Positions 40,301-54,469 of a stretch of 64,000 nt of DNA are shown piece by piece. Each line of letters begins with the position of its first letter. Positions within the stretch are counted from its first letter, which is position 1. Below the pieces are notes generated by a model. That model was not told the origin of the DNA and made no database searches. It worked only from the letters and a program-made list of their open reading frames with translations. The stretch is from an uncultured Gammaproteobacteria bacterium (lineage in GTDB: Bacteria; Patescibacteriota; Patescibacteriia; UBA9934): contig CAYHFQ010000002.1 of NCBI GenBank assembly GCA_964355955.1, forward strand, positions 2,338-66,337, given 5' to 3'. Both the position numbers and the translations under genes were made by a program.

Positions 40301-41044
40301 AAAAGCTCTTAAGCGTGGTAAGTCTTTCTTGTGCAATTCATGAGGTAAATCCTTGAATTCAAAATGTTCAACTAAATTCGCCATCCCCCTACCCAACAAA
40401 TGCTGCATTTTTAAAAAATCAGTCTGACCGTCAATTTCAACGCTAGGTACACGCTGATTAGAATATTCCCTAGCCTGTCTGTACAGCAGCCCTTGAGCAC
40501 ATGTAGCTACATCGTTATACTCGACAATTTCTTCATGTTTTGGGTCTTTGATAACAATGTTATCAATAAACTTCCCCCAGGCTTCGCGTTCATCTAAATA
40601 TTGACGCAAGTCTTGCTCGTCTTTTAGTTCAACCGGTAGTCCATCTAATTTAAAGTGTTCTTCAAAAACGTAAGATAGTTCATTATTATCAAGCTTTGGA
40701 TAATAAGCATGAAGTTTTTTAATCAACTCAGGAATTCTCTCCCTCGTCACTGGTGTCGCCATCTCGCCGGCAAATTCTTTAACAAATTTAGCCTCTGCCT
40801 CGGCCCGCTCGTCAGTTACTTTGCTCGCTACTAATTCCAACTTTTTAAACGGTACATTCCTCTCCGCGAACTCTTCCGCTGTAGTTGCGTGCGGAGGAAC
40901 TGGATGTTCAATCTGGTTCCCTTCAGCCAAAGTCGTCAAACCGAGCAGAACGCCTTGCATCAGGCGACTCTTCCAGGTAAACCTAACTGGCTCTTTTCTC
41001 ACCTCAGGTGAATATCCACCTCTCTCACCATGGCCAAAACTCAT
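37322..41044 (-). CDS. giant hypothetical protein (1240 aa), paralog 1. Internal 'xxGFPxxxxxxxEAD' repeat modules. C-terminal ~330 aa resembles a phosphodiester-glycosidase (NAGPA-like) domain with a degenerate LDGGGS site
   Basis: No recognisable catalytic family in the N-terminal 800 aa. The C-terminus RRAIATFKDGTFGIIDFSQPMTLYEEAVIAKSMNVKGLVNLDTGYYD parallels the NAGPA-family pattern (R.A.G..dG.l.l..vdg...g.tl.ela.....ga.nAlNLDGGGS). An N-terminal hydrophobic segment (LMQGVLLGLTTLAEG) may be a signal anchor. Confidence 0.55.
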   Translation of the reverse strand: MSFGHGERGGYSPEVRKEPVRFTWKSRLMQGVLLGLTTLAEGNQIEHPVPPHATTAEEFAERNVPFKKLELVASKVTDERAEAEAKFVKEFAGEMATPVTRERIPELIKKLHAYYPKLDNNELSYVFEEHFKLDGLPVELKDEQDLRQYLDEREAWGKFIDNIVIKDPKHEEIVEYNDVATCAQGLLYRQAREYSNQRVPSVEIDGQTDFLKMQHLLGRGMANLVEHFEFKDLPHELHKKDLPRLRAFLFKAVQESDRDDYGARYSSFLVDEYIDSLTFDPHEFPTVINQKYTKDIVAAAKQLNDIGYWEFGLTKAQNYDFQGDHYDDRKFSFEIGTHLLNSASFEGFPGLDFKNPQQFIEIGNQLESLIKDVGSKDYYATLIPRYIENADPSSFPKFDALGLPEYENFLKAIKNSEDFQPKVGLEAILLKQAREQFYGGVVTDDNFFQLIKKIKDLEQSSGYDSARMAYLVNDPSLVKGDIAIAVDKQHRSEGQISLAEINSSPVATVLLASLVNRYDDGINVKIVGYPTNWTIDNLKEADNINLIIETASLESNLHRLKITGYEDVHLEGNWQQPKSLEDLRNIDELLRQFKSDRTRSEILKHLDFSGFPVFSARYDAETKPLYGYFQYRSFMSKLAERADYSNVQFTLSPETMDEVVAQANYITQEFGTNAGELYFSKLNFKGFPTEMNASTEADVAAVLKLMTNINGFRLAQAYANTLHSTEVYGFADVITDENLESEHAKLLFINFGIGQQEGRGQFNSTVKVSVPKAANFTEFTQGLAKISLIRDINKDAANTLEAEFMKQVDWHGVAQGIDVNDISKVEDIRKKINAAIDAAAGDKILIDVGTRAIDGEPVTWDNINQKTTFAKNYLKADGRGIPSDVLGMYTMLGSFQVQKILEFFNTEGLETDTGDRRAADIIAQLQDAGANIPITEGSLSKTTRSLKDGNFGYVLNKGFDRLLSAGVMRDEWASITPEVRRSSKKLKAGFRMVTWRTDGKELATVVIGDPSKGATVDYTVKVGGGLTEQVMRDNYPDGALVAESVGAYTTGAMKPAELAIDNGSVVNYLISNRDGAVIVDAEGHMIIVNRDKLTKHDLDSNETAEPLAFRKNLEDFSTLLSLAKKNKIDMMSGHLLVDDGELAVAGNSSNVRDKRRAIATFKDGTFGIIDFSQPMTLYEEAVIAKSMNVKGLVNLDTGYYDHAVVYDAAGMRSVLGQVQDRDGTNNNFGFLSGVTPAGVK

Positions 41045-41073: not shown

Positions 41074-44000
41074 CTATTCCTGTGCGGTCTGATAGACCAT
41101 CGGCATACCTGTCAAAAAAGCAAACTTGTTATTCGTTCCATCCTGATCCTGTTGACCTAAGGCAAATAACATACCAGAAGCATCGTACACATTTGCATGA
41201 TCGTAATAACCAGTATCGAGGTTGACGAGACCTTTTACGTTCATCGACTTAGCAATAACCGCTTCCTCATACAGGGTCATTGGCTGCGAGAAATCTATCA
41301 AGCCAAAAGTGCCGTCCTTAAACGTCGCAATCGCCCGCCGCTTATCTCTGACGTTACTCGAGTTACTGGCTATAGCGAGTTCACCATTATCCACCAATAA
41401 ATGACCAGACATGACATCAATCTCGTTCTTGCGAGCTAACGTAAGTAGAGTCGAAAAATCCTCTAGCTTGTCGCGAAAAGCTAAATGATCAGCAGCCTCT
41501 TTACTATCCAGGTCATGCCTAGTTAGTTTATCGCGGTTAACGATATTCAAGGCCCCGTTGACATCAACAATCGCTAACCCATCGCGATCGGAAATTAAAT
41601 AGTTAACCACATAACCGTGGTTAATAGTTAACTCAGCTGGCTTCATCGCACCAGTCGTGTAAGCGCCCACGCTTTCGGCTACCAAGGCGCCTTCTGGGTA
41701 TTTGTCATGCATAACCTGTTCGGTTAACCCACCACCAACCTTCACGGTATAATCTACCGTCGCTCCTTTAGCTGGATCGCCTATCACCGCCTTCGCCAAC
41801 TCCTCACCATTATTTTTCCAATTAACAAAAGTATACCCAGCCTTAAGTCGCTCGGTTCGAGTTTCAAAAATAGGCGTAATACCCTGCCATTCTGGCCGCA
41901 TAACGTCGGCTGCTGCCAACTTGTTTTCAATTTTGCTCCAAATATAAGCTGGGTCACCCATGCTCCGCCAAGCCTTTTGCCAACTGCCCTCAGTCACAGG
42001 GATATTAGCTCCTGCCGCTTGCAAACGCTCAATAGTTTCCGCTACTCGGGCGTCACCTGTATCTGCGGCCAAGCCTTCAGCGTCAAAGAACTCTAAAATC
42101 TTCCGCACTTCAAAAGATCCCAACATCTTATAGACGCCTACTACATCTGGGTCTATACCGTATTGTTCAGCCTGTAAATAATGCTCAGCAAAAGTAATTT
42201 TTTTCTCCATTGTCAGCCAACTGACAGGTACGTTAGCGATATCTCTAATACCGACCTCCACAACCAGTCCGTCCCCTGCTGCAGCATCGATTGCCAAGTT
42301 AATATTCTGGCGTACCGACTCCACGGCCTCGATATTATCGATATCAACACCCTTGGCAACTCCTACCCAGTCTACTTGAGATAAAAATTTTTGCTTCAGC
42401 TCTTCCGCTACCTTATTATCCAAATCTTGCACTAACCCAATTTTCGCCAGGCCAGCAGTAAACTCGGCAAACGTTGTGGCTAGTGGAATAGAAACTTCAA
42501 ATTTTGGCTTTATTCCAGAATATCGAGTCTCTGGCGTAGAACCTATGCCGTAATACACTAATAATCTCTTAGTATTTTCATGCTCTAAATTCTCATCAGT
42601 AATAATTGGGGCGAAAGTATAAAGATGATCAGAATGTAGAGTTTTAGCATAACTACTGGCCAAATCTTCCTGAAAACTATTAATAAATAGTTTTAGAGTA
42701 GCGGCCACATCAGCTTCGGTTTTTTCATTAACTTCTTGTGGAAAGGCAGCAAAAGTTAGTTTGTTCAAATAGCCCCTAGCCTCACCAGTTCCAACAACAT
42801 CTACTAAATAGTCAAACTGCCGTTTTATTTCTGGTAGATTATCGGGAGTTACCGCAAAAATACAGTCAGAGAAGTCGGCTCGTTCCACTAAGCCCGGGCC
42901 GAACCAGCGACTGACCAGAGAGCCACGTTTTAATATGTTGGCCTTGTAACTTGCCGAAAAGACTGGAAATTTTGAATAATCAAGATGTCTAACAATTATT
43001 CGTCCAGTTCTTTCGTGCTCTTTTAAAATTGCCGCCAGATTCTCTAGATCATGCCAAGTTCTGGGCTGACTCAGTTCACCCTCAAACTTCACGTCACGAT
43101 AATTACTGGACCCGATGTCAATTTGGCTACCTAATAAATCAACAGCCTCGATTGCTTTCTCGATTTCCGTAATGTTTTCTAAAGTCCAAACCATCGGGAA
43201 GCCATTTAAGGAGATTTTATCCGGAATTCTGTAATTAAAAAATTGGTGAAAAAAGGCTTTACCTGTTGGGCTCTTTTCTACTTCTTGTAGTGCTAGTTCA
43301 CCAGGCAGCTTATGTTCAGCAGCAAGCGATAAGGTTAAGTCACCTCGCCAATGAGCAACTGGAGCCATCAAGGAAACGAGAAGTTCCGGTTCAACATCTG
43401 ACTCGGCATCAAGTCTAGCTAACTCAGCCAAGACAGTCTCTAAATTTTCAGGCGTTATATCCCCCAATTGCGCTTGGCGTCGAATAATCCTTATTAATTC
43501 GTTTCTTGTATTATCTCGATCCCAGGCAAAATCAATATTATTATCAAATTCAATAAAGAAAGTTTGATACGTTTCCAAGCCTGCAGTATTAAGTTCAGGG
43601 AAATTTCTTGTTTCAGCTAAATCTACAAAATGTGACGCCAGACTTGACCGATAAATCGTTGAACCAGCAGACTTACCGAGATCAGTCAAAATTCTAACAG
43701 TGTCCGCAAATTGCTCAGGGTGGTGAAAATCTAATGGATTAAAACCCTCAAATGTTGAACTCCTAAGTAGTTGATGGCCTAATCCAAAACTGACAGGAGC
43801 ATCTTTATTCACCCAATCACCATCTTGAATATCTAATGATTTGCTAATCCCATTCTTATAAAAGCTTATTTGGTTCAACTGTTTAGCGGCCGCTAAACTA
43901 TCTGCTGAATCATCCTTGTGGATGACTGTCGGAAATTCAGCTGAATCGAAGGTTAATGTGGCAATATATCTATCTAACAAAGCAGTCGTACAAGCATCGT

Positions 44001-44691
44001 CAACATGGTTCAATGCGCCACCACGACGAACCGCCTCCAATAAAAACGAACGTAAGCGTGGTAAATCACGCTTGTGAATTATATGCGGTAAACCTGCAAA
44101 TTCTATTTCTTCCACGCGTCGTAACTGATCGTCAACGGTTTCTACCTGCAACTGATAAAAATCTTCTTTGTCTCTAACTACTAGCTTAGGAATAGGACTC
44201 TTTTGGTAAGTATGTTCATGTTCATACAAGACGCTGAGCAACCATGAATCCTCCGACTTTTCAAAAATTTTCTTCCACGACTCGTGAGTTGCGAGATATT
44301 GACGAAAATCTTGCTCATTTTTTATTTTCTCGGGAAAACCGGCTAATTTGAATTGTAGTATGAAATCAGTGGGTATAGTGTCGTGAGGAGTGGCGAAAGA
44401 TTGAAGCTTTTTATCCAAAGCTGGCAACTGGTCAGCCGTAATCGGAGATTGTAATTCAACGGCAAAAACACGCTTGAATTCTTCACCTCGTTCAGCTAAA
44501 TCTTGAGCCGCTGGATTCGCGCCCACTTCACTTATTTTCACTAATGGCTCAGAACGCGCTGCAAATTCAGCTGTGGAAGTTTCACTATAGCCATCTGGTA
44601 CGTCCAACCGCTCTCCGGCAGCCATCGTCGCCAGACCAAGCAAAGCGCCCCGCATCAACCGGCTACCTCCCTCCCCTTGGCCAAACTTCAT
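41074..44691 (-). CDS. giant hypothetical protein (1205 aa), paralog 2 (tandem duplicate of 37322-41044)
   Basis: Same architecture. N-terminus MKFGQGEGG vs MSFGHGERGG. The C-terminal 350 aa are about 75% identical to paralog 1. The 29-nt gap to paralog 1 contains TATAAT. Confidence 0.55.
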   Translation of the reverse strand: MKFGQGEGGSRLMRGALLGLATMAAGERLDVPDGYSETSTAEFAARSEPLVKISEVGANPAAQDLAERGEEFKRVFAVELQSPITADQLPALDKKLQSFATPHDTIPTDFILQFKLAGFPEKIKNEQDFRQYLATHESWKKIFEKSEDSWLLSVLYEHEHTYQKSPIPKLVVRDKEDFYQLQVETVDDQLRRVEEIEFAGLPHIIHKRDLPRLRSFLLEAVRRGGALNHVDDACTTALLDRYIATLTFDSAEFPTVIHKDDSADSLAAAKQLNQISFYKNGISKSLDIQDGDWVNKDAPVSFGLGHQLLRSSTFEGFNPLDFHHPEQFADTVRILTDLGKSAGSTIYRSSLASHFVDLAETRNFPELNTAGLETYQTFFIEFDNNIDFAWDRDNTRNELIRIIRRQAQLGDITPENLETVLAELARLDAESDVEPELLVSLMAPVAHWRGDLTLSLAAEHKLPGELALQEVEKSPTGKAFFHQFFNYRIPDKISLNGFPMVWTLENITEIEKAIEAVDLLGSQIDIGSSNYRDVKFEGELSQPRTWHDLENLAAILKEHERTGRIIVRHLDYSKFPVFSASYKANILKRGSLVSRWFGPGLVERADFSDCIFAVTPDNLPEIKRQFDYLVDVVGTGEARGYLNKLTFAAFPQEVNEKTEADVAATLKLFINSFQEDLASSYAKTLHSDHLYTFAPIITDENLEHENTKRLLVYYGIGSTPETRYSGIKPKFEVSIPLATTFAEFTAGLAKIGLVQDLDNKVAEELKQKFLSQVDWVGVAKGVDIDNIEAVESVRQNINLAIDAAAGDGLVVEVGIRDIANVPVSWLTMEKKITFAEHYLQAEQYGIDPDVVGVYKMLGSFEVRKILEFFDAEGLAADTGDARVAETIERLQAAGANIPVTEGSWQKAWRSMGDPAYIWSKIENKLAAADVMRPEWQGITPIFETRTERLKAGYTFVNWKNNGEELAKAVIGDPAKGATVDYTVKVGGGLTEQVMHDKYPEGALVAESVGAYTTGAMKPAELTINHGYVVNYLISDRDGLAIVDVNGALNIVNRDKLTRHDLDSKEAADHLAFRDKLEDFSTLLTLARKNEIDVMSGHLLVDNGELAIASNSSNVRDKRRAIATFKDGTFGLIDFSQPMTLYEEAVIAKSMNVKGLVNLDTGYYDHANVYDASGMLFALGQQDQDGTNNKFAFLTGMPMVYQTAQE

Positions 44692-44700
44692 ATAGCCCCA

Positions 44701-46185
44701 TTATACCATGCTCTTCAACACCCGATAAATCTCCACCATCGCCCAGGTATCGAGGGCACAGTAGTCGAGCAAGTCGCGTTTAATCTTCTCCTTGTCACTG
44801 GCTGACGTCGACGGAGATATAAGCTTCTCCCAGCGCTCACTCGCTTGGTCACCCTTACTGATATTCATCACCGAATAATTCAACGATGGTACTAAGACTG
44901 GCAAAACCTTTTTAATACTGGCACTCCCCTTAAAAGCCGGGTCGACGTAATAGCCATCAGAAAAAATCGTCATCAAGTCGAACATCTTGTCATTGATTTC
45001 TTTCAAGAACGCTGCATGCTCAGGGTGCAGTTCGGCGAGTTTGTCATTCCGTTGCTTCTCATAACTGCTATACCAACTAATCACCGTCCCATTCGGATCG
45101 AGGTCCTTCTTCATCCGTTCAATCAGCGGCAACGTCAAATCTCCCTCCGGCTCAGTTATAAGAAACTCGCGATGTTCTATCTCCCCATCTGCTCCCATAA
45201 TGTGCAAACTGTACTGGAAAGGAATCTGCTCATACGCCCCAAAGCCGTCAAACATCGGAATAGCGCTACTGTATCCCTCGTAATCAAAGAACTGGAGTGG
45301 AAACTGCAAGCCGTCTAACGCTTCTTTAATCGCGCCATGATCGATTATCGCCTTGCCGAGCACATAAGACTCATACTGCAACTTCTGCGCCACGTTCAAG
45401 TCCTCGGGATTATGAATGTCGGTCAGCGCTAACTCCCCGCGGTCCACCCAATCAATCAACTTCTTCTTGCTCATGCCAATCCGGTTAAAGTTATGCACGG
45501 AATATGCCGGCACCTCTGGATTAGAATAACCAAAGGTGGAGCACTGATTACTCCGTCCCTCGTACACGCAAGCGCAACCTTTGCTCTCCGGCATTTCCAA
45601 ACACTCTTTCATCTGCATCATCTCCCCCTTTACCTGTTCTTCCGCCGCTATCACCTCCCCCGTCAAATCAGCTTCGATGAATAACTCACAATTCACCACC
45701 TTGCCGTTTTTACGATATTCACGATTCAAATGAATAACGCCGGTCTTAACTACTTTCACCCCACACGCTTCAATGACAATCTTCTGAAAGGCCAAGTCGT
45801 TGACGTGGTGATGCGGCACTTTACGCTTCACCTCATTCGTCGCCTTCACCTCCCACAATTCCCAAGAATCGAGCTCGGTATTGAACTTCAAAATATCCGC
45901 CCGCAAATAAAACACATCGCTCTGAAACGTCGCCTGAAAAATCGTCTGCTTCTCCTCAATGGCCTTCTTGGTATCTATCACCGCCTGGCCATGATGACTC
46001 TCAATCAGCACTCCCTCAGGATACAGCAGCCGACACGCCGCCTCCGCCAAGTTACCATCCTCAATAATCTTCTTCTCAAAGTCGCTAAACTCCACGTCCG
46101 CAAACAACTCTGGCTTATGCTTCCGCAGCCACAGGTTCTTCTTACAAAAAGTGTATTCGAGGTAATCGGTTTTGGTGATGAGCAT
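44701..46185 (-). CDS. Cas4/RecB-like PD-(D/E)XK nuclease with Cys cluster fused to a C-terminal DEDD-like exonuclease-type domain (DUF2779-like architecture)
   Basis: N-terminal C...ADIL...ELWEVKAT (D/ExK), Cys cluster GCACVYEGRSNQC, C-terminal FFDYEGY...DTWAMVEIY. Ends 9 nt before giant paralog 2. Confidence 0.5.
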   Translation of the reverse strand: MLITKTDYLEYTFCKKNLWLRKHKPELFADVEFSDFEKKIIEDGNLAEAACRLLYPEGVLIESHHGQAVIDTKKAIEEKQTIFQATFQSDVFYLRADILKFNTELDSWELWEVKATNEVKRKVPHHHVNDLAFQKIVIEACGVKVVKTGVIHLNREYRKNGKVVNCELFIEADLTGEVIAAEEQVKGEMMQMKECLEMPESKGCACVYEGRSNQCSTFGYSNPEVPAYSVHNFNRIGMSKKKLIDWVDRGELALTDIHNPEDLNVAQKLQYESYVLGKAIIDHGAIKEALDGLQFPLQFFDYEGYSSAIPMFDGFGAYEQIPFQYSLHIMGADGEIEHREFLITEPEGDLTLPLIERMKKDLDPNGTVISWYSSYEKQRNDKLAELHPEHAAFLKEINDKMFDLMTIFSDGYYVDPAFKGSASIKKVLPVLVPSLNYSVMNISKGDQASERWEKLISPSTSASDKEKIKRDLLDYCALDTWAMVEIYRVLKSMV

Positions 46186-46192
46186 AATGAAA

Positions 46193-47191
46193 TTAATCGA
46201 TCAACTTTTTAATCTGCTTTTCAAAGTCCGACTCAATTGGCTGTGTTTTATTGAACATCTCATATTCAGATAATGCCTTTTTCTCAGCCGTAGCCATACT
46301 TACCACACCTTTATTCTTCAACACCTTAAACTTGTTAAAAGCTAAGAAATTACCAATACTCTCGGCAAACTCCTTCATGGTTAAAGTCTGTTCCTGTTCA
46401 ATCAAGTTTTCGACATAGTCAAAGTAGTTAGTTATCGTTCGCTCTAACCTCTTGATATCCTTCTCGGCTAAATAATTCTTAGCCACCACGACATCCGACG
46501 GCAACACCCGACCATCTGGACTATTCTTCCAACTCGTTAACCCCATATGCTTCTTGTTCCTATCGACCTTACTATGGATAATCTCCGCCGCCGTCTGACC
46601 AGTAATCGCAAAATGGAATAGGTTTTGTACGGTCGCAAAAAATGCTCGAGTCGTAGGTGACTTGGGATCATAGTCAACACTACACTCCGAAAATATATCC
46701 GTGATCTGCAAATACACCCTACGTTCACTCGCCCGAATCGACCGAACTCTCTCCAGCAACTCTCTAAAATAATCCTTACCAAATACTTCCTTACCCTGTT
46801 TCAACCTCTCATCATCCATGGCGAAACCTTTAACCACATACTCCTGCAGCACCCTTGTCGCCCATATCCTAAACTGTGTCGCCTGCACAGAATTCACCCG
46901 GTATCCAACGGAAATAATGGCGTCGAGGTTATAGAACTGAGTTTCATATTCCTTGCCATCAGCGGCAGTTATTCGAATTTTTCGAATAACTGCTTTTTCG
47001 CTTAACTCAGCAGTTTTAAACACCTCTTTAAGGTGATAATTGATAGTATTTGCCTCCACGCCAAATAACTCCGCCATCATCTTCTGCGTCAACCACAAAG
47101 TTTCCCCCTCTACCCGCACCTCAAACCTAACCGCTCCACTTGGGGTGGTGTAGAGGATAAAAGGGGTCAAGTTTGATTTTTCTTTAGCCAT
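46193..47191 (-). CDS. RhuM-family protein (virulence-protein RhuM family)
   Basis: N-terminus FILYTTPSGAVRFEVRVEGETLWLTQKMMAELFGV...YNLDAIISVGYRVNSVQATQFRIWATRVL matches the conserved RhuM N-domain. 332 aa. Confidence 0.75.
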   Translation of the reverse strand: MAKEKSNLTPFILYTTPSGAVRFEVRVEGETLWLTQKMMAELFGVEANTINYHLKEVFKTAELSEKAVIRKIRITAADGKEYETQFYNLDAIISVGYRVNSVQATQFRIWATRVLQEYVVKGFAMDDERLKQGKEVFGKDYFRELLERVRSIRASERRVYLQITDIFSECSVDYDPKSPTTRAFFATVQNLFHFAITGQTAAEIIHSKVDRNKKHMGLTSWKNSPDGRVLPSDVVVAKNYLAEKDIKRLERTITNYFDYVENLIEQEQTLTMKEFAESIGNFLAFNKFKVLKNKGVVSMATAEKKALSEYEMFNKTQPIESDFEKQIKKLID

Positions 47192-47258
47192 ATCTCAATC
47201 CTCAATATTAACCAGAAAATTAGCCCTTATTTACCGCTCAGTTAAATATATTGTACTA

Positions 47259-47287
47259 AAAATGGACCCCTAATTCAAGCTAAATAA
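47259..47287 (-). promoter_or_regulatory. near-consensus sigma70 promoter reading into RhuM, DUF2779, the two giant proteins and the ABC exporter
   Basis: On the minus strand: TTGAAT, 17-bp spacer, TACAAT. A GAGGA RBS lies 6 nt before the RhuM ATG. Confidence 0.6.
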
Positions 47288-47311
47288 AGCAAGAAGTAAA
47301 CCACGCACTCG

Positions 47312-47800
47312 CTATAACTCCACATACTCCTCAACCGCCGTATCCTCCTGACTATACGCCATATCATCATCCTCGCTCTCACTCTCCCCACTACCCTGCC
47401 ACCCAGCGGCCAGCTGAGCTGGTCCCGCTACGCCCCTACCCAGCCCCTGAACACACTGTTCCTTAACTGCCCGCTCTGCCCACACTCTAAACCTATTCGC
47501 TAACCCCGGATTACTCCTATACCCAACGGCCAGTATCGCCTCCAAACTATAACTCTTAACCTCATAGTTCTTCCCATCCCTCGCAGTTATCCGGTTTTTC
47601 CGGACAACTGTATTCTCGCTAATCTCACCACCTTTAAACGCATTCTGTAAATGCTCGCTGACTGTTTTGATACTAATGCCGAACACCTCTCCTATTTCCT
47701 TTTGGGTGAGCCAGACGGTGCAATCCTCAACTCGTACATTAAAACGAATTGAACTGTTAGGTATTGCGTAGACAGCAGACTTAGGCTCAGAGGCAATCAC
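47312..47800 (-). CDS. stand-alone RhuM N-domain paralog with an acidic tail (truncated RhuM-like protein)
   Basis: AVYAIPNSSIRFNVRVEDCTVWLTQKEIGEVFGI...YSLEAILAVGYRSNPGLANRFRVWAERAV is about 50% identical to the N-domain of 46193-47191. The C-terminus is Glu/Asp-rich. Confidence 0.65.
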   Translation of the reverse strand: MIASEPKSAVYAIPNSSIRFNVRVEDCTVWLTQKEIGEVFGISIKTVSEHLQNAFKGGEISENTVVRKNRITARDGKNYEVKSYSLEAILAVGYRSNPGLANRFRVWAERAVKEQCVQGLGRGVAGPAQLAAGWQGSGESESEDDDMAYSQEDTAVEEYVEL

Positions 47801-47803
47801 ACT

Positions 47804-49654
47804 CTACAAAGCTAATCGACTCTTAAAAAACTCTCTTACATTCTCATCCACAAAATAAACATAACACCCCTTCATCCCACGAGTCATTAAGATCTTGTAT
47901 ATATTACGAACGTATTTATTAAGTTGATCTGGATTATTCTTCAGCGACTTCTTGCCGCTAGCATCTTTGTAAGAAGTCCAATTAGTTTTATATTCAAGTG
48001 TCTCTGAATCAAACTTCAAGTCACCGCCAACTATCACGCCCACATAATCAAACTCTAAGCCCTGTGACGTATGAATGCAGCCAACCTGGTCGAGGCCTCG
48101 AGGATCTATCGCCCAGGTAGTACCAACCTTACGAGAGTTCCAAGGCATTCTAAAATCGTGGCTCATTATCTCGACGTCAGCAACACCTCCATCAGCGTTG
48201 CCATCACGAATGGGCGTCCACTTCCAAGCATAACCAGCCACTATACGAGCGCTGTTACCTTCTGCCGATTTATCTTTAATAGCATCCCTAAGAGCATGCG
48301 GATCATCAAAGATTTGAAAATCAAAAGCCATCTTGTCCCAGCCATTAAAATTAGCTGTGGACTTGAGGTGTAAAACATCATTCAACCAATTGATATAACC
48401 TTCAGCTCCAGAACATCTGAATTGAGCAACTAAATCAACCGTATGAACTTTGGCACTAAATAGTTCTGCAACTCTGATTATTTCCTTTACTGTACCAATA
48501 TCTTCCGGTCTAATCGCCTGATCATCATCAACAAAGAATATACTTGTCTTAGCTGCCTTCACGATATCTTCTACTTGGTTTTGTCCGTAATATTGGTACG
48601 CTGTTTTATTCTTAAGACGATGAGCTTCGTCGACAATAACCACATCAAACGTGTCAGGCAATGCATCGACAAAACCAGCCGAACCCTTAAACAAATTCTT
48701 TAGACGGTTCTTCTTGTGCTCCTTGGCCAGTTTGTGAACGATTGTATCGCGAAATGAGGCGTTAGGAGCTACAAAGATGGTATTGAGCTCGTTCTTAAGC
48801 AATCCGCCAAGCAGATTGACTGAGATTACAGACTTGCCAGTGCCTGGGCCACCCTTAATAATTACTACTGATTTCTCCTTATTAGTTAGTGCTACCGAAC
48901 GAGCAGTCTCATAAGCCACCTTTTGCTCATCCAATAAAATAAACTCCTGGTTACCGCTAAACATACCAGCGACATGGTCAATCAACTTCTTGCTTGGCTT
49001 AATCTTACCGTATTCTATTTCGTAGAGAATCTCCTCGCCGTTACCTTTTCCAACATACTTCTTAAGAAACTGCTCGAGCTTAACCTGATCATTTTTGAAA
49101 TAAATAGGCGTCTCTTGAACTAACTCCTCATAAATACCGGTCGACAACGGCTCAGGCGAACGCTTTTCAAAATTATGTAGATAAGCGCAAGAAAATGGCG
49201 TCAGGTCCTTGGAATCAATATTCTCATTATAATCCTGTAAAAAATGCTTATAAGATTGGGCCTGATAGGATGGATGCGGCGTATCCCTAACTCCACCACC
49301 AAGATAGGTGCTCACAACTCCATCCTTCTCAGTTGCCTCAGCTGACTCCCACTGTTTGAGCTCGACTAAAATAAAGTTCTTGTTACCCTCTTCGTCATGT
49401 CCAGAAACGAAAAAGTCGATTCGGTTCGAGGTAGCAGGAATTACATACTCAATCAGAACTCCACAGCTCAGGTCCAGCTCGGCTTTTCGCACAACCCTCT
49501 CCATATACTGGAGCGAGTTCTCCCATGCTCGGCGTTCACTCGGAGCAACACGTCTCCCTAACATCCGCTGAAATTGCCCCTCAATAATCGGTGCAATCAT
49601 GTTCGAGTCGACGTCCTCTCTAAATCCGCCAATGGTGCTCTTATATAGAAACAT
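47804..49654 (-). CDS. DUF2075-type protein: N-terminal PD-(D/E)XK-like nuclease domain, P-loop ATPase, UvrD-C-like domain (defence-island ATPase-nuclease)
   Basis: RIDFFVSG...ILVELKQW (nuclease-like), Walker A GGPGTGKS, Walker B VVIVDEAHRL, C-terminal TSQGLEFDYVGVIVG (UvrD_C-type). Confidence 0.7.
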   Translation of the reverse strand: MFLYKSTIGGFREDVDSNMIAPIIEGQFQRMLGRRVAPSERRAWENSLQYMERVVRKAELDLSCGVLIEYVIPATSNRIDFFVSGHDEEGNKNFILVELKQWESAEATEKDGVVSTYLGGGVRDTPHPSYQAQSYKHFLQDYNENIDSKDLTPFSCAYLHNFEKRSPEPLSTGIYEELVQETPIYFKNDQVKLEQFLKKYVGKGNGEEILYEIEYGKIKPSKKLIDHVAGMFSGNQEFILLDEQKVAYETARSVALTNKEKSVVIIKGGPGTGKSVISVNLLGGLLKNELNTIFVAPNASFRDTIVHKLAKEHKKNRLKNLFKGSAGFVDALPDTFDVVIVDEAHRLKNKTAYQYYGQNQVEDIVKAAKTSIFFVDDDQAIRPEDIGTVKEIIRVAELFSAKVHTVDLVAQFRCSGAEGYINWLNDVLHLKSTANFNGWDKMAFDFQIFDDPHALRDAIKDKSAEGNSARIVAGYAWKWTPIRDGNADGGVADVEIMSHDFRMPWNSRKVGTTWAIDPRGLDQVGCIHTSQGLEFDYVGVIVGGDLKFDSETLEYKTNWTSYKDASGKKSLKNNPDQLNKYVRNIYKILMTRGMKGCYVYFVDENVREFFKSRLAL

Positions 49655-49669
49655 ACACGATAAATTCTT

Positions 49670-50719
49670 TTAAATACGTGATAATCTTTTTAATACATTT
49701 TGATACTTACTGATAAATTCACCAGTCTCATAAGGTTCACCCGAATAGAACATATCCTTATCCACGTTATAATCTTCTGAAAGCTGCAATGCGTTGCGTA
49801 AACTCTTCATGACACCCTTATCTACCTCTTCACCCTGTTTAATTTTGTTTGCAGATAGATGATACGATAAGGTTTGATGCCTTTTAAAAAATTTATTTCC
49901 GTTCGTTATTGTTCTTTCAAAACACTCAGTTTGGTTATTATATATACAATTAAAATTACGTAGAATACGAGTAAGTTTCATTAAAGTTACTGGTCGTTGA
50001 CCTTTTTTCATTATTTTAGCATTTTTTACAATCCAAAGCGCGAGATTATATATCACACCATCCTCACTCAAACCGTTATCGTGTTGAGCGATCTTCATTG
50101 AAATTTGGAATAATTCGTCATCATTACATATTAAAGAAACATGATGTCGGTCAAGAAAAACTAGAAGAGAGACGAGGGCGGATCTCTTATTACCATTATG
50201 GAATGAATGGTTATTTGAGATAGCATACATTAATGCAGCCCCAGATGTTTCTACAGTTGGATATTTGTAATTATATCCAAATGATGTTTGAGGGTGAAAA
50301 ACAGCAGACTCTAACAAGTTAATATTCTTAATACCGTCAGGAGAAATAGGATCCTCTGATAGCGCGGCATCCTTCGCTAATTCAGAGTGAATGGCGATAA
50401 TCTCAGAAGTAGTCAGATAAACAGGCTCGTCTAATCTCTTGCCTATAGTAGAATAATCGAAATACTCTACTTTAGCATTTTTCTTGGCTTCTTTTCGCGT
50501 CAAAGAAATATCTGCAGGATTTACATTAGATATAGTTTTTAGGATAAAAGCTAAATGCTTCTGCCTGATTACACTATTTCGATTAATTAAATAATCAAAC
50601 TTATCACTGCTAGCGCCAAGATCCCAAAGCAATATTAATAGATTATCAGGGTCGATGTTATAATTTCTTGCAATTCGGCCAATTGTTCTTTTTGTCGATT
50701 TCATATTTTGCATTCTCAA
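49670..50719 (-). CDS. Fic/Doc-family protein with a Doc-type active-site motif (HSFHNGNKRSALV), flanked by extra N- and C-terminal regions
   Basis: HxFx(D/N)GNKR is the Doc-class signature of the Fic fold. 349 aa. Very AT-rich codon usage. Confidence 0.7.
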   Translation of the reverse strand: MRMQNMKSTKRTIGRIARNYNIDPDNLLILLWDLGASSDKFDYLINRNSVIRQKHLAFILKTISNVNPADISLTRKEAKKNAKVEYFDYSTIGKRLDEPVYLTTSEIIAIHSELAKDAALSEDPISPDGIKNINLLESAVFHPQTSFGYNYKYPTVETSGAALMYAISNNHSFHNGNKRSALVSLLVFLDRHHVSLICNDDELFQISMKIAQHDNGLSEDGVIYNLALWIVKNAKIMKKGQRPVTLMKLTRILRNFNCIYNNQTECFERTITNGNKFFKRHQTLSYHLSANKIKQGEEVDKGVMKSLRNALQLSEDYNVDKDMFYSGEPYETGEFISKYQNVLKRLSRI

Positions 50720-50720
50720 C

Positions 50721-51071
50721 CTATAACTCCGTATACTTCACCGCACTCCCCTTACTCTTCTCCACCGGATACTTCTCCCCATTCTTCGCCAGTTTGCGTT
50801 CGAAGGCGTCACTCAGGTCAATCCCTAAGTCATGCGTCATGAGGAGTACCCAGTAGAATACGTCCGCCAGTTCGTCCGCCACGTCGGCCTTGTGCTCCGC
50901 GAGGTACTTGGTCAAAGCATCGCCATTCCGCCACTGGAAGTGTTCAAGTACCTCTGTGGCCTCTAGTTGGAGCGAAATAGCGCAGTCCTTGGGATTATGA
51001 AACTGCCGCCAATTCCTAGCGTCGCGAAAGGAGGTGACGAGGGCGGTCAGTTCGGCGATGGATTTAGGCAT
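50721..51071 (-). CDS. MazG-like nucleotide pyrophosphohydrolase (YpjD-type, all-alpha NTP-PPase)
   Basis: WRQFHNPKD...SLQLEATEVLEHFQW...ELADVFYWVL...GIDL...KYP, the EExxE/D motifs of small MazG proteins. Starts 1 nt after the Doc gene stop. Confidence 0.8.
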   Translation of the reverse strand: MPKSIAELTALVTSFRDARNWRQFHNPKDCAISLQLEATEVLEHFQWRNGDALTKYLAEHKADVADELADVFYWVLLMTHDLGIDLSDAFERKLAKNGEKYPVEKSKGSAVKYTEL

Positions 51072-51181
51072 ATGTTGTGGATAAGTTGACTTTTACTCAA
51101 ATATACACTATTCTAACACATGTAAGCCCTCGGGTTTGCCCGATTTTGATCAAGATCCGTCCCTCGGGGCGGATCTTTGAG

Positions 51182-51781
51182 TTAATGGCCAACTTTTAAA
51201 CGATAGTCCAAATCTTGGGCAAAGATTATTTCATCTAAATATCCCTGCTTTTTAGCGTCAAAAACTTCTCGACCTATATGGTCACGCGCCCCAATTACAA
51301 TACACGATTTTTGATATTCGTCTTTCAAATAGCGTACCGCGTGCATTAAATCCCCATCCCCTGAGAAAAGTACCAATGAATCATAGGAATCACGATACTT
51401 CACTAGGTCGATTGCCATTTCAACATCCAAATCACACTTCTTTTCAAACCCAATCTTATTATCAGAAGAATGGATATATTTAACTCGCTTAGTGACAATT
51501 TCAAATTTATTCCATTTGGCTTTTTCCAAAATCAATCGCGACCATTCAGAAAGTGCTGACGACCTTTCATCTTTGCCAAAATCTGAACCATAGTAAAAAC
51601 GTCTATTCTGTCTATTACCGAGCGAAAAGTGCTTGACCAACTGAGCCAATTTACCAATATCAATATTCCAACCTAGACTATTCTTCCATTTCTCTACATT
51701 ACCAAAATCAACAATAACCATCGTTCGGTCAAGCTTAACTGCATATGTATCGAGATATTTCTTAATCTGTTCCTTATTCAT
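51182..51781 (-). CDS. NYN-domain (LabA-like, PIN-related) predicted RNase
   Basis: VIVDFGNVEKW ... LVLFSGDGDLMHAV, the NYN acidic motifs. 199 aa. Confidence 0.65.
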   Translation of the reverse strand: MNKEQIKKYLDTYAVKLDRTMVIVDFGNVEKWKNSLGWNIDIGKLAQLVKHFSLGNRQNRRFYYGSDFGKDERSSALSEWSRLILEKAKWNKFEIVTKRVKYIHSSDNKIGFEKKCDLDVEMAIDLVKYRDSYDSLVLFSGDGDLMHAVRYLKDEYQKSCIVIGARDHIGREVFDAKKQGYLDEIIFAQDLDYRLKVGH

Positions 51782-51797
51782 AATCCAGATCCATCTT

Positions 51798-51858
51798 ACA
51801 CCATTTTCGTGATATCACGAAAATGGTGTGTCGGTATGTTCCAATCTGGAACATACCG
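51798..51858. promoter_or_regulatory. two strong palindromes just upstream of NYN: a 32-bp perfect palindrome acaccattttcgtgat|atcacgaaaatggtgt and cggtatgttcca-atc-tggaacataccg
   Basis: Read directly. The first starts 17 nt upstream of the NYN start codon. Confidence 0.6.
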
Positions 51859-51940
51859 GGTTTCCCTTTATTTAATGATTTGTTGACGTCAACAAAATGA
51901 TAATTCATTGGTGAATTGATAAAAATGTGCAATAAATAAT

Positions 51941-52030
51941 AAACGTGAAAAACATCAAAATTTAGTCATAATTCACGTTTATCTTGACTATAAACGTGAA
52001 AAATGGTAAAATATCGTCATAATTCACGTT
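51941..52030 (+). promoter_or_regulatory. Fic promoter/operator: two tandem ~40-bp units (aaacgtgaaaaa-N-gtcataattcacgtt, each an inverted repeat) around a TTGACT-17-TAAAAT promoter (51984-52012)
   Basis: Unit 1 is 51941-51980 and unit 2 is 51992-52030. Further palindromes: ttgacgtcaa (51882-51891), aattcattggtgaatt (51902-51917). Confidence 0.55.
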
Positions 52031-52041
52031 AATTATTTGCT

Positions 52042-52914
52042 ATGGCTAGGCTCAAGTCGTATCTAAAAGAGATTGATAATTTGCGTAAACGCTATTTTTT
52101 GGCTTTACCAGGCAAAGAATCGCTCGTGAAACTAATTAGTGAAGCTGAGGTTTCGGAGCAAGTTTATAACTCAAATGCTATTGAGAATAGTACGTTAACC
52201 TTGGAAGAGACCGAGAAGATTTTGCTTAAATTGGACCTCGATCGCTACATCAGCGAACGAGAACTATTTGAAGCTAAGAATCTAGCTCAGGTGACTAACT
52301 ACATGGAGATACGGGCTCATGAGCAGCCACTCAATGAGGACGTGGTGCTCCTGCTCCACAAAATGCTGTTAACGAATATTCGTACCGATATCGCCGGACG
52401 GTTCCGAGCGGCAGACGAATGGGTTCGTGTTGGTAGCTATATTGCTGCCAACCCAGCTGAAATTTACGAGCTTCTGGCTAACATGTTTACAGAATATGCC
52501 GCCAATCCGCAGCTGCACATTGTTAAACGTCTAGCTAGGTTCCATTTAACCTTTGAGCATATTCACCCGTTTGTTGACGGCAATGGTCGCATGGGCCGCA
52601 CCATGAATAACTACCTCTTGCTACGTGACGGTTATGTGCCGCTCACTATTCTTTTCGCTACCCGCGAGTTGTATTACCAGGCTTTCAAGGAGTTTGATGC
52701 GACAGGTTCAACGTCGACTATGGAAGATATCATCGGTTTAGCCCTACGAGAAAGTTACCACAAGCGCTTGGCATATCTTGAAGGTAAAAAGATTATTACC
52801 CTCAATGAATATGGGAAGATAAACAATATCACGCTTTCTGCCCTACTCAATAAAGCCGCACGCCAAACTATTGAAGCTTTTCGCGAGAAAGGGACGTGGA
52901 AGATTGGAGTTTAA
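52042..52914 (+). CDS. Fic-family protein (class II, with N-terminal inhibitory-helix motif SNAIEN and canonical HPFVDGNGRMGR)
   Basis: The HPFx(D/E)GNGR active-site loop is exact. (S/T)xxxE(G/N) is present near residue 44. 290 aa. Confidence 0.85.
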   Translation: MARLKSYLKEIDNLRKRYFLALPGKESLVKLISEAEVSEQVYNSNAIENSTLTLEETEKILLKLDLDRYISERELFEAKNLAQVTNYMEIRAHEQPLNEDVVLLLHKMLLTNIRTDIAGRFRAADEWVRVGSYIAANPAEIYELLANMFTEYAANPQLHIVKRLARFHLTFEHIHPFVDGNGRMGRTMNNYLLLRDGYVPLTILFATRELYYQAFKEFDATGSTSTMEDIIGLALRESYHKRLAYLEGKKIITLNEYGKINNITLSALLNKAARQTIEAFREKGTWKIGV

Positions 52915-54469
52915 AAGGCAACCTAACCATCTCCTTCTCCCCCTCTTGTTTACGGAGCGCCAACGTCAATCCCTCCCAGTCAAAGAACGGCAAGACAAAC
53001 AACATATACCCCAAGCCGATCGGGTGATTTAGGTACGGCGAGAAGACGTGGGTGATGAAGAGAGCCACTACGCCAGCGTACAGGCCGATGGTGAGCCAAC
53101 GGTGGCCGTGATTGTGATAGGTGAAGTAAAACGCGCGGCTGACGACGACGAAATACCACACGAAGGCGATGAGGCCGAGCAAGCCCATCTTGAGCCAAAT
53201 ATCTTGATAACCCCATTCAAAACGGTAGGTGGTGTATTCGCCCGTTGGGTTGGTAGCGCGGATGCGGGGGTCGTCGGTAATGAAGGTGACGTCGTGACCA
53301 AAGCCACGGCCGAGCATCGGGCTCGCTACAATTTCCTGGTACATCGGGTAAAGCAAGTTCCAACGACTGCTAATGGCAAGCCCTCTGTCATCCGCTTGCG
53401 ACGCTTTATAGAAGGCCGCCTCTTTCAAATTCGGATGTTTCGGAATCGGTGAAACGATAACCGCCCAGAACAACACGGCACCCAAAGCCATCACCAAACC
53501 AACTCGGCCAGCATTCAAAACATATTTACCGACACTCTTCGGTGCATCAAGCAGCGCAAACAAGGCAACGATGCCAGCCCCAGCCATAGCACCTAGCACA
53601 AAGCTGCGGGAAAGACTTGCTATAAACGTGGCCGTACAAAGAATTAACGTCGCCTTAGCAATTAGTGGCATCCTTTCGCTCTTCCAGACGGTGAACCTCG
53701 CAGCGACCAGAGCAAAGATCATGACCATCGGGAAGAAATGGGCTGGCTCGAACACGCGGAAGTACCATGGGCTAGCAGAAGGCAAAAGATTACCAACGAA
53801 CCACTTAGGCCCTGTGAGCAACGTCACCTCGGCAATCCGGGCATCACGCACAAACTCATACACTCCCCGTAGTAATCCTCCTGGCAAATGCGTAAACAGG
53901 AAAACGATCAAGAGCGTATTAACGCAAATAAAAATCGTACTAGCAAACAGCACCTGCAGCAGCTCTCGCTTCTTATTGCTGTCCCAAGCGATCGACAACA
54001 GCGGCAACAAATAAGCAATCGTCACATAACTATTAGCGTCATCAAAGGCTTCGCCGACATTGTTCTGCGCTAAACCGATAATCGCGCCTATACCAACCGC
54101 CAACAACAGCAGCAACCACGGCGTATCGCGGAGTACCATAAACTTCGGCCACGTCTTTGTCCTTATCGACGACGCCAACCAGGCCAACATGACAGCCGCA
54201 AAAATTACCATCCTAATACTCAAACTAAATCCGCCAACGCTGGCATCGATCAAATGCCCATGCCCGCCGACCATAATTTCGGCAAAGGCAATCAGCAATC
54301 CGTTAATCGGATTCTTATATGCCATTACCGCTGTCGCCACAAAAATGACACCCAGCGCTATCAACGACGGAATTTGCTGATGTTGAATAGGAATCGCCAC
54401 CAGTGTCAGCAAAGTCAACGCCGCCAACACTATCCCTGCTGTTTTTCCTACAAATTGCTTGTTAAACAT
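52868..54469 (-). CDS. polytopic membrane protein, O-antigen ligase/polymerase (Wzy_C)-like
   Basis: About 12 TM helices with a central large loop, next to the GT and Wzx genes. The start likely lies internal to the ORF, which overlaps the Fic gene's 3' end. Confidence 0.5.
   Translation of the reverse strand: MFNKQFVGKTAGIVLAALTLLTLVAIPIQHQQIPSLIALGVIFVATAVMAYKNPINGLLIAFAEIMVGGHGHLIDASVGGFSLSIRMVIFAAVMLAWLASSIRTKTWPKFMVLRDTPWLLLLLAVGIGAIIGLAQNNVGEAFDDANSYVTIAYLLPLLSIAWDSNKKRELLQVLFASTIFICVNTLLIVFLFTHLPGGLLRGVYEFVRDARIAEVTLLTGPKWFVGNLLPSASPWYFRVFEPAHFFPMVMIFALVAARFTVWKSERMPLIAKATLILCTATFIASLSRSFVLGAMAGAGIVALFALLDAPKSVGKYVLNAGRVGLVMALGAVLFWAVIVSPIPKHPNLKEAAFYKASQADDRGLAISSRWNLLYPMYQEIVASPMLGRGFGHDVTFITDDPRIRATNPTGEYTTYRFEWGYQDIWLKMGLLGLIAFVWYFVVVSRAFYFTYHNHGHRWLTIGLYAGVVALFITHVFSPYLNHPIGLGYMLFVLPFFDWEGLTLALRKQEGEKEMVRLPFKLQSSTSLSREKLQ

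Follow-up and report, generated by a model that had tools for sequence, protein, structure and literature searches.

A 64,000-nt stretch of contig CAYHFQ010000002.1 (the window) encodes, 120 nt apart on the minus strand, a full-length RhuM protein and a shorter protein that shares its N-terminal domain (N-domain) and ends in an acidic tail. We found that the short gene is a new and rare architectural variant of the RhuM family, with the conserved acidic tail as its distinctive feature. Its full-length neighbour is, by its sequence, a canonical single-gene RhuM of a known kind, the PADLOC candidate system PDC-S05. We somewhat favour the view that the two are independent cargo genes of a mosaic island of defence and toxin–antitoxin genes, the short one encoding a stand-alone protein that binds nucleic acid and has an acidic tail for contact with a partner. 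RhuM (PDC-S05) is among the commonest candidate single-gene phage-defence proteins; a PDC-S05 representative lowered plating of T7 and T5 in E. coli by about 1000-fold, and protection against T7, T5 and T4 has been reported (PMC12881386).

A short RhuM relative with an acidic tail

The two genes and their parts, with residues numbered within each protein, are:

47312..47800, minus strand: short gene, 162 amino acids plus stop, GTG start
47438-47782, minus strand: RhuM-type N-domain of the short gene, residues 7-121
47372-47437, minus strand: Gly/Ala-rich linker of the short gene, residues 122-143, unconstrained and of variable length
47315-47374, minus strand: conserved acidic C-terminal motif of the short gene, EDDDMAYSQEDTAVEEYVEL, residues ~143-162
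46193..47191, minus strand: full-length RhuM gene, 332 amino acids plus stop, PDC-S05 type
46817-47191, minus strand: N-domain of full-length RhuM, residues ~1-125
46196-46816, minus strand: RhuM-specific C-terminal region of full-length RhuM, residues 126-332
Residues 192-203 of full-length RhuM: block FH.AI.G.TAAE, invariant columns of the homologue alignment

Sequence comparison shows the N-domains of the two proteins to be homologous, far beyond chance. A gapless BLASTP alignment of residues 10-121 of the short protein with residues 13-124 of full-length RhuM has 55 of 112 positions identical (49%, E=1e-39), in agreement with the figure of about 50% in a preliminary description of this locus, which also placed both open reading frames (ORFs) correctly and quoted the acidic tail, SGESESEDDDMAYSQEDTAVEEYVEL, as it is present in the short protein. 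The likeness ends with the N-domain. Against Pfam PF13310 (Virulence_RhuM), the short protein scored 43.3 bits (cutoff 33.7) over profile positions 2-59 only, which are the end (last third) of the N-domain, and it matched the N-only PDC-S05 models PDLC04876 and PDLC04858 with E values of 1e-34 to 3e-32. A PHROGs match to 'HTH DNA binding protein' was marginal (E=0.0075). Using a hidden Markov model (HMM) of the C-region, we did not find the RhuM-specific C-terminal region (profile positions 60-252, with FH.AI.G.TAAE) in the short protein or downstream of it in any frame. We also considered the acidic tail as a relic of the extreme C-terminus of RhuM (its ESDFDK block) and rejected this origin; hhalign of the tail against the RhuM alignment gave a probability of 0.5%, with 7 columns aligned.

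Five variants of the short gene are known, 48-79% identical to one another, two of which were placed in Candidatus Uhrbacteria assemblies. A search of 5.8 billion proteins yielded the relatives P0002 (153 amino acids, 74% identical), P0003 (154 amino acids, 68%) and P0004 (147 amino acids, 51%), and a genome scan supplied the fifth variant, at locus L011 (152 amino acids, Candidatus Uhrbacteria UBA11707). Across the five, lengths span 147-162 amino acids, and every tail fits the motif DDxxAY(S/N)QE(D/E)..(V/T)EEYVE; the C-terminal ends read DDDMAYSQEDTAVEEYVEL, NDDLAYSQEDIAVEEYVELS, EDEMAYSQEDTAVEEYVEFAE, DDDLTYSQEETVVEEYVEL and SDDLAYNQEDTSTEEYVEL. Proteins bearing this tail are rare: a search of 1.84 billion representative proteins returned one close cluster (P0002), the scan of genome contigs two loci (L010 and L011), and the scan of metagenome contigs no tail-bearing member. 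The family appears to be small and lineage-restricted.

Selection was estimated by the Nei-Gojobori method on four of the five variants. The ratio of non-synonymous to synonymous divergence (dN/dS) was 0.12-0.29 in the N-domain, at a synonymous divergence (dS) of 0.5-1.1, and approximately 1 in the linker. In the tail it was 0.07-0.34 in four of six pairs, over 19-21 codons with about 10 synonymous sites and in a family of only five known variants. These sequence comparisons indicate that the N-domain and the tail of the short gene are under purifying selection.

A recent frameshift fragment, an origin that the preliminary description had raised against itself, was tested and refuted: the short ORF is not such a fragment because length and tail are conserved among its relatives, dN/dS lies well under 1 and no remainder of a C-domain was found in any frame. 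That it is a decaying pseudogene remnant of a once full-length RhuM is highly improbable, even though truncated or frameshifted RhuM genes are common (L017, L018, L026, L052, L054, L063, L076 and L085) and most other N-only ORFs in an 80-genome survey look like truncations that run into nonsense tails soon after the N-domain, since the five diverged variants, which differ by dS of up to ~1 and are not assembly copies of one sequence, retain frame, length and the specific tail motif, with dN/dS of 0.12-0.29 in the N-domain and mostly below 0.35 in the tail at a dS near saturation, and since the C-region HMM that detects C-domain remnants in genuinely split RhuM genes (L017, L018, L052, L063, L076, L054 and L085) detects none downstream of the short gene in any frame. 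We propose that the family would have descended from a RhuM N-domain by losing the C-terminal region and gaining a flexible linker and an acidic and aromatic peptide of about 18 residues.

The 3' end of the short gene also stood out at the DNA level. Its last ~21 nt (GTTGAGGAGTATGTGGAGTT; 47315-47352 in the window and the corresponding position in L001, L007 and L009) are nearly invariant in four loci, and the genes of the window and L001 are identical in DNA over 38 nt at this end, the rest of the gene having a dS of ~1. This might reflect constraint at the nucleotide level, codon bias or a junction left by recombination.

Full-length RhuM and the fold of the shared domain

Full-length RhuM matched PF13310 with E=9.5e-103 and 343.3 bits (cutoff 33.7 bits) over residues 67-317 and profile positions 1-248 of 252; it thus meets the whole-protein Pfam gathering cutoff with the RhuM-specific C-terminal region covered. 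The PDC-S05 model of PADLOC matched residues 9-331 (E=6.5e-147), and custom HMMs of the N-region and of the C-region both matched the ORF. We found more than 8000 homologues, of which the best 120 are 65-75% identical and come from several phyla; those named among these 120 include Patescibacteria, a Prevotellaceae bacterium and Altiarchaeales archaea. The protein would consist of an N-terminal domain of a nucleic-acid-binding type and a predicted, largely helical C-terminal region that is presumably the effector part. Its AlphaFold2 model was poor, with a mean predicted local distance difference test score (pLDDT) of 53.5, and a sequence search of the PDB with the C-region gave no match. We looked for a link between this region and Fic or Doc enzymes (Fido superfamily) in its sequence and saw none. 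The active-site motif HxFx(D/E)GN(G/K)R is absent, the conserved block FHFAITGQTAAE keeping only the H-x4-G spacing, and hhalign of the C-region against a 7-sequence Doc alignment, a comparison of thin profiles, gave a probability of 0.07%; the 'Fic' names on the homologues P0057, P0145 and P0152 are source labels only.

The region between the two genes contains the following features:

47192..47311, minus strand: spacer, 120 nt
47278-47273 (-35, TTGAAT) and 47255-47250 (-10, TACAAT), minus strand: candidate sigma-70-like promoter, 17-nt spacing, 9/12 consensus positions
About 9 nt before the RhuM ATG, minus strand: Shine-Dalgarno-like GAGGA, from reading of the sequence

The preliminary description had called this promoter strong. 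We found that a 9/12 match occurs at background frequency (18 such sites in 7.7 kb, compared with 14.9 ± 3.1 in shuffles), and a promoter in the spacer is, from its sequence, plausible but not demonstrably strong. No terminator-like site was found in the spacer, and no stable RNA fold, the folding being weaker than in shuffles (z=+1.9).

To describe the shared domain, we used an AlphaFold2 model of the short protein built from a 42-sequence alignment, in which residues 10-110 reached a pLDDT of 85-96. The model has β-strands at residues 7-12, 19-25 and 28-31, helices at 33-40, 44-56 and 62-65, further strands at 66-72 and 78-84, and helices at 86-96 and 98-121. We read this confident model as a β-hairpin followed by a winged helix, which would be Bro-N/APSES-like. 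Residues 122-162, which comprise the linker and the tail, had a pLDDT below 50 and are probably disordered. Weak sequence matches pointed to a helix-turn-helix at residues 31-56 (sigma-70 region 4, HTH_24 and Crp-like).

A Bro-N/KilA-N-like pattern had been suggested in the preliminary description, and this held as a resemblance of the predicted fold but not in the sequence profiles. Foldseek against viral models returned top matches at E=8e-6 to 1e-3 that were mostly Bro-N, Ant N-terminal and 'repressor domain' proteins, including baculovirus Bro; against the PDB it returned nothing for the N-domain below E=0.05, and the Bro-N match relies on predicted models only, with no solved Bro-N structure among the PDB matches. 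Pfam Bro-N (PF02498), KilA-N and ORF6N matched neither N-domain at E<=10, and hhalign of a 311-sequence RhuM N-domain alignment against a 121-sequence alignment of DinD-type Bro-N proteins gave a probability of 0.14%. The predicted models therefore support the Bro-N/KilA-N idea as a resemblance in fold, to the Bro-N/Ant class of phage DNA-binding domains, and not as membership of the family. DNA binding by RhuM was suggested earlier from sequence analysis (PMC4293111), and in the searchable literature we found no paper naming both 'RhuM' and 'Bro-N'. An N-domain kept under selection on its own argues for a self-contained activity, which, going by the modelled fold, would most likely be nucleic-acid binding.

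That the N-domain is an independent module, as the preliminary description proposed, is borne out by its distribution. An exhaustive search of representative proteins found it in 13,870 clusters (E<=1e-3), in the architectures N-domain plus RhuM C-region, N-domain plus Doc (P0177, L025 and L033; PADLOC PDC-S23), N-N repeats (for example, P0161) and N-domain only. A mirror image of the N-only gene was also seen: in Humidesulfovibrio/Desulfovibrio, genes of 230-240 amino acids that consist of the C-region with a basic N-terminus of their own directly follow a full RhuM gene (L069 9460-10179 and L073 10993-11682).

Neighbourhoods and the proposed role of the short gene

The genes around the pair are:

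47804..49654, minus strand: DUF2075 / Schlafen-group-3-type helicase gene, 616 amino acids, upstream of the short gene (Pfam PF09848 SLFN-g3_helicase, E=2.1e-94)
44701..46185, minus strand: DUF2779 (RecB/Cas4-like) gene (Pfam PF11074, E=3.7e-38), beginning 7 nt after the RhuM stop
49670-50719, minus strand: Doc-family gene (Pfam/NCBIfam)
50721-51071, minus strand: MazG-like gene (Pfam/NCBIfam)
51182-51781, minus strand: NYN gene (Pfam/NCBIfam)
52042-52914, plus strand: Fic gene (Pfam/NCBIfam)

Immediate neighbours of the short gene in the window and in the loci of its relatives are:

Window: upstream DUF2075 (3-nt gap); downstream RhuM (120-nt gap)
L010 and L001-L003: upstream SocA/Panacea and an 84-residue RelE-like ORF (1-nt gap); downstream a ~100-residue ORF, a 136-residue ORF and DUF2779
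L009: upstream Panacea and a 91-residue RelE-like ORF (1-nt gap); downstream histidine phosphatase
L007: upstream an unrelated 176-residue ORF (210-nt gap); downstream an 81-residue ORF, a 175-residue ORF and DUF2779
L011: upstream a DUF3800-like gene; downstream an XRE-Panacea protein, a 126-residue ORF and DUF2779

The five variants thus occupy four different neighbourhoods. The preliminary description had proposed a survey of the surroundings of N-only genes; ours revealed no conserved arrangement, and the neighbours of the relatives differ on both sides. DNA homology between the window and L002 or L009 stops at the start codon of the short gene, and between loci it stops at the stop codon. 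DUF2779 forms a conserved right flank, its protein being 94-95% identical to the copies in L001/L010 and L011, and the Fic and MazG-like proteins are 96-97% identical to their L010 copies, with different genes between them. Between the conserved flanks, island genes are 44-79% identical or unrelated: the short genes of the window, L010 and L011 are 48-69% identical and the full-length RhuM genes of the same islands 44-52%. GC content steps gene by gene across the island, from 0.33 to 0.51.

The short gene of the window is no nearer to its neighbour than to unrelated RhuM N-domains. The short and full-length N-domains are 50% identical in the window pair and 41% in the L010 pair, and the L011 short protein is 64% identical to RhuM of the window; concerted evolution of the two N-domains within a genome was looked for and not seen. 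Because the neighbours vary and the short N-domain is not closest to the RhuM of its own genome, the two genes are neither a recent tandem duplication nor a conserved two-gene unit. The tandem RhuM modules of the preliminary description are adjacent in the window, but the pairing is not conserved in relatives. Similarly, the coupling to DUF2075 that it noted, seen in the window as a 3-nt gap between the DUF2075 stop codon (TAG, 47804-47806) and the GTG of the short gene (47798-47800), is specific to this genome, with different upstream genes in relatives.

On our preferred account, two independent cargo genes, the short protein would act through its N-domain as a free-standing DNA- (or other nucleic-acid-) binding adaptor or regulator, and its tail would be a short linear motif that docks on a partner or masks the protein's own basic DNA-binding face. 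Acidic C-terminal tails of SSB and HMGB1 are generally thought to dock on a partner or to fold back on the basic DNA-binding face, and we draw on them by analogy. In the window genome, translation of the short protein may begin by reinitiation once the DUF2075 helicase gene has been read, and RhuM may be transcribed by read-through, by a modest promoter in the 120-nt spacer, or by both. The adjacency of the two would have arisen by cassette exchange at an island hotspot and would not reflect a dedicated two-gene system.

Several observations weigh against this account. In each of the three genomes whose context reaches far enough, the island also contains a full-length RhuM gene (at distances of 120 bp, 4.9 kb and 9.2 kb), a co-occurrence that the account treats as coincidence and that leaves room for a functional link to RhuM. 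DNA binding by the N-domain is deduced from the fold class of a model, with no sequence-profile link to Bro-N. Operator-like repeats were not found in the spacer, except for an 11-nt AT palindrome, which leaves a classical autoregulator role without positive support, and the tail is short and known from few variants.

We also considered that the short gene might be the last gene of the upstream operon (the DUF2075 nuclease-helicase in the window, a PanA/RelE-like pair in relatives) and encode its DNA-binding regulator or accessory factor. Its GTG follows the upstream stop by 3 nt in the window and by 1 nt in L002/L010 and L009, a tight junction found again in contigs that were assembled separately and from different samples. 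Yet the upstream genes are not related to one another, the gap widens to ~100-210 nt in L007 and L011, and DNA homology of the window with L002/L009 does not extend 5' of the start codon, so that the tight junction may be a cassette join. We consider this reading unlikely.

A comparably small chance attaches to the short protein being a trans-acting partner of RhuM, an antitoxin-like or decoy regulator. Its N-domain might compete with RhuM for the same ligand or form mixed oligomers with it; alternatively, by analogy with Phd acting on Doc, its disordered tail might inhibit the C-terminal effector of RhuM. A DNA-binding-type domain joined to a conserved C-terminal peptide of low model confidence resembles type II antitoxins, the genes lie 120 nt apart on the same strand in the window, and full-length RhuM is found in the same islands of the window, L010 and L011. 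However, that distance is not conserved (120 bp, 4.9 kb and 9.2 kb), and the three RhuM genes are only 44-52% identical, and the short genes show no co-variation with them. In the majority of the 80 genome loci surveyed, RhuM stands alone, and L009 shows no RhuM within its 1.5 kb of context. Furthermore, a single PDC-S05 representative with one Virulence_RhuM domain protected E. coli without a short partner (PMC12881386).

The strongest form of this idea is that the acidic-tail protein is a dedicated trans-regulator, whose N-domain serves as a decoy and whose C-terminal peptide acts on the effector region of RhuM, keeping it off until infection. We think this doubtful, even more so than the partner reading at large. 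If true, it would be the first mechanistic handle on RhuM/PDC-S05 control and would show that single-gene defence systems can follow a 'truncated-paralogue antitoxin' principle.

Returning to the island itself, comparison with L010 and L011 shows window 44701-54469, from the Wzy_C/Fic genes to DUF2779, as a multi-slot variable island. The swapped genes are NYN, Doc, DUF2075, the short gene and RhuM in the window, and in L010 a 250-residue ORF, a DinD-type Bro-N gene, RhuM, a glycosyltransferase, an IS1595 transposase, PanA, a RelE-like ORF, the short gene and two small ORFs. The sequence of the DUF2075 gene suggests a nuclease-helicase defence protein: its helicase core has weak PADLOC matches to AbiO, Nhi and PDC-S41. 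The N-terminal 250 residues contain a PD-(D/E)xK-like motif (RIDFFVSG...NFILVELKQWE), read by eye, for which Pfam PDDEXK_13 reached only E=0.22.

After the short gene, two diverged genomes share a conserved gene pair (L007 1210-1455 and 1459-1986; L001 536-844 and 966-1376) in the position that RhuM takes in the window. The pair is made up of a small ORF (...ADYEELSGA..LKRMG...LARLAE...) and a 136-175-residue ORF whose R-x6-H / KRN.VH motif recalls HEPN; neither gave a Pfam or PHROGs match in L007 or L001. In three loci (L002 151-936, L009 3-556 and L011 10453-11659), the short gene is flanked on one side or the other by a Panacea (SocA)-domain antitoxin gene and its partner, a small putative toxin gene of 84-126 residues; these small genes had no Pfam match.

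Elsewhere in the window, a 41-residue stretch (INSPMNYHFVDVNKSLNKGKPG...; ~51808-51921, minus strand, in a 52-residue ORF at 51774-51932) resembles the DinD-type Bro-N protein of L010 (its residues 57-97, 37% identity), with an E value of 6e-5 against that 1.1-kb target only; the stretch may be what is left of a Bro-N gene that lay between NYN and Fic. Directly downstream of DUF2779 on the minus strand are tandem paralogous genes (37322-41044 and 41074-44691; 1205-1240 amino acids) with weak NAGPA matches in Pfam, the two products being closely alike over their C-terminal ~300 residues.

Comparison with known systems

The modularity of the N-domain was known before this work. Anantharaman et al. 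(2013) reported fusions of RhuM-like domains to Doc and put forward a role as toxins (PMC3710099), and the PADLOC PDC-S05 and PDC-S23 sets already hold N-only and N-domain plus Doc models. From the Bro-N/AntA-N/KilA-N-APSES class, including DinD-type proteins, the RhuM N-domain differs in having no sequence-level link to it.

Type II antitoxins such as Phd offer a parallel in general architecture. Phd has a DNA-binding N-domain and a disordered, toxin-binding C-terminal tail that folds onto Doc and inhibits it. The short gene likewise lies among toxin–antitoxin and defence genes, but it has no conserved adjacent cognate toxin gene, and an autoregulatory operator was not found.

In PDC-S23-type proteins this N-domain, serving as a portable module, is joined to another kind of C-terminal part, Doc/Fic. 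PDC-S23 models match both N-domains of the window (E=1e-28 to 1e-48), and their C-terminal half matches its separate Doc gene; the examples L025, L033 and P0177 carry H.F.DGNKR. In contrast to an enzyme domain, the C-terminal part of the short protein is probably a disordered 40-residue linker and peptide (pLDDT <50).

The closest known system is RhuM itself (PF13310/PDC-S05), of which the full-length gene is a textbook member. The short protein shares its N-domain (49% identity) but, instead of the C-terminal region (positions 60-252), carries the conserved acidic tail. Since the short family is rare and its pairing with RhuM is not conserved, we regard the locus as a useful annotation and a minor lead, not as a new system.

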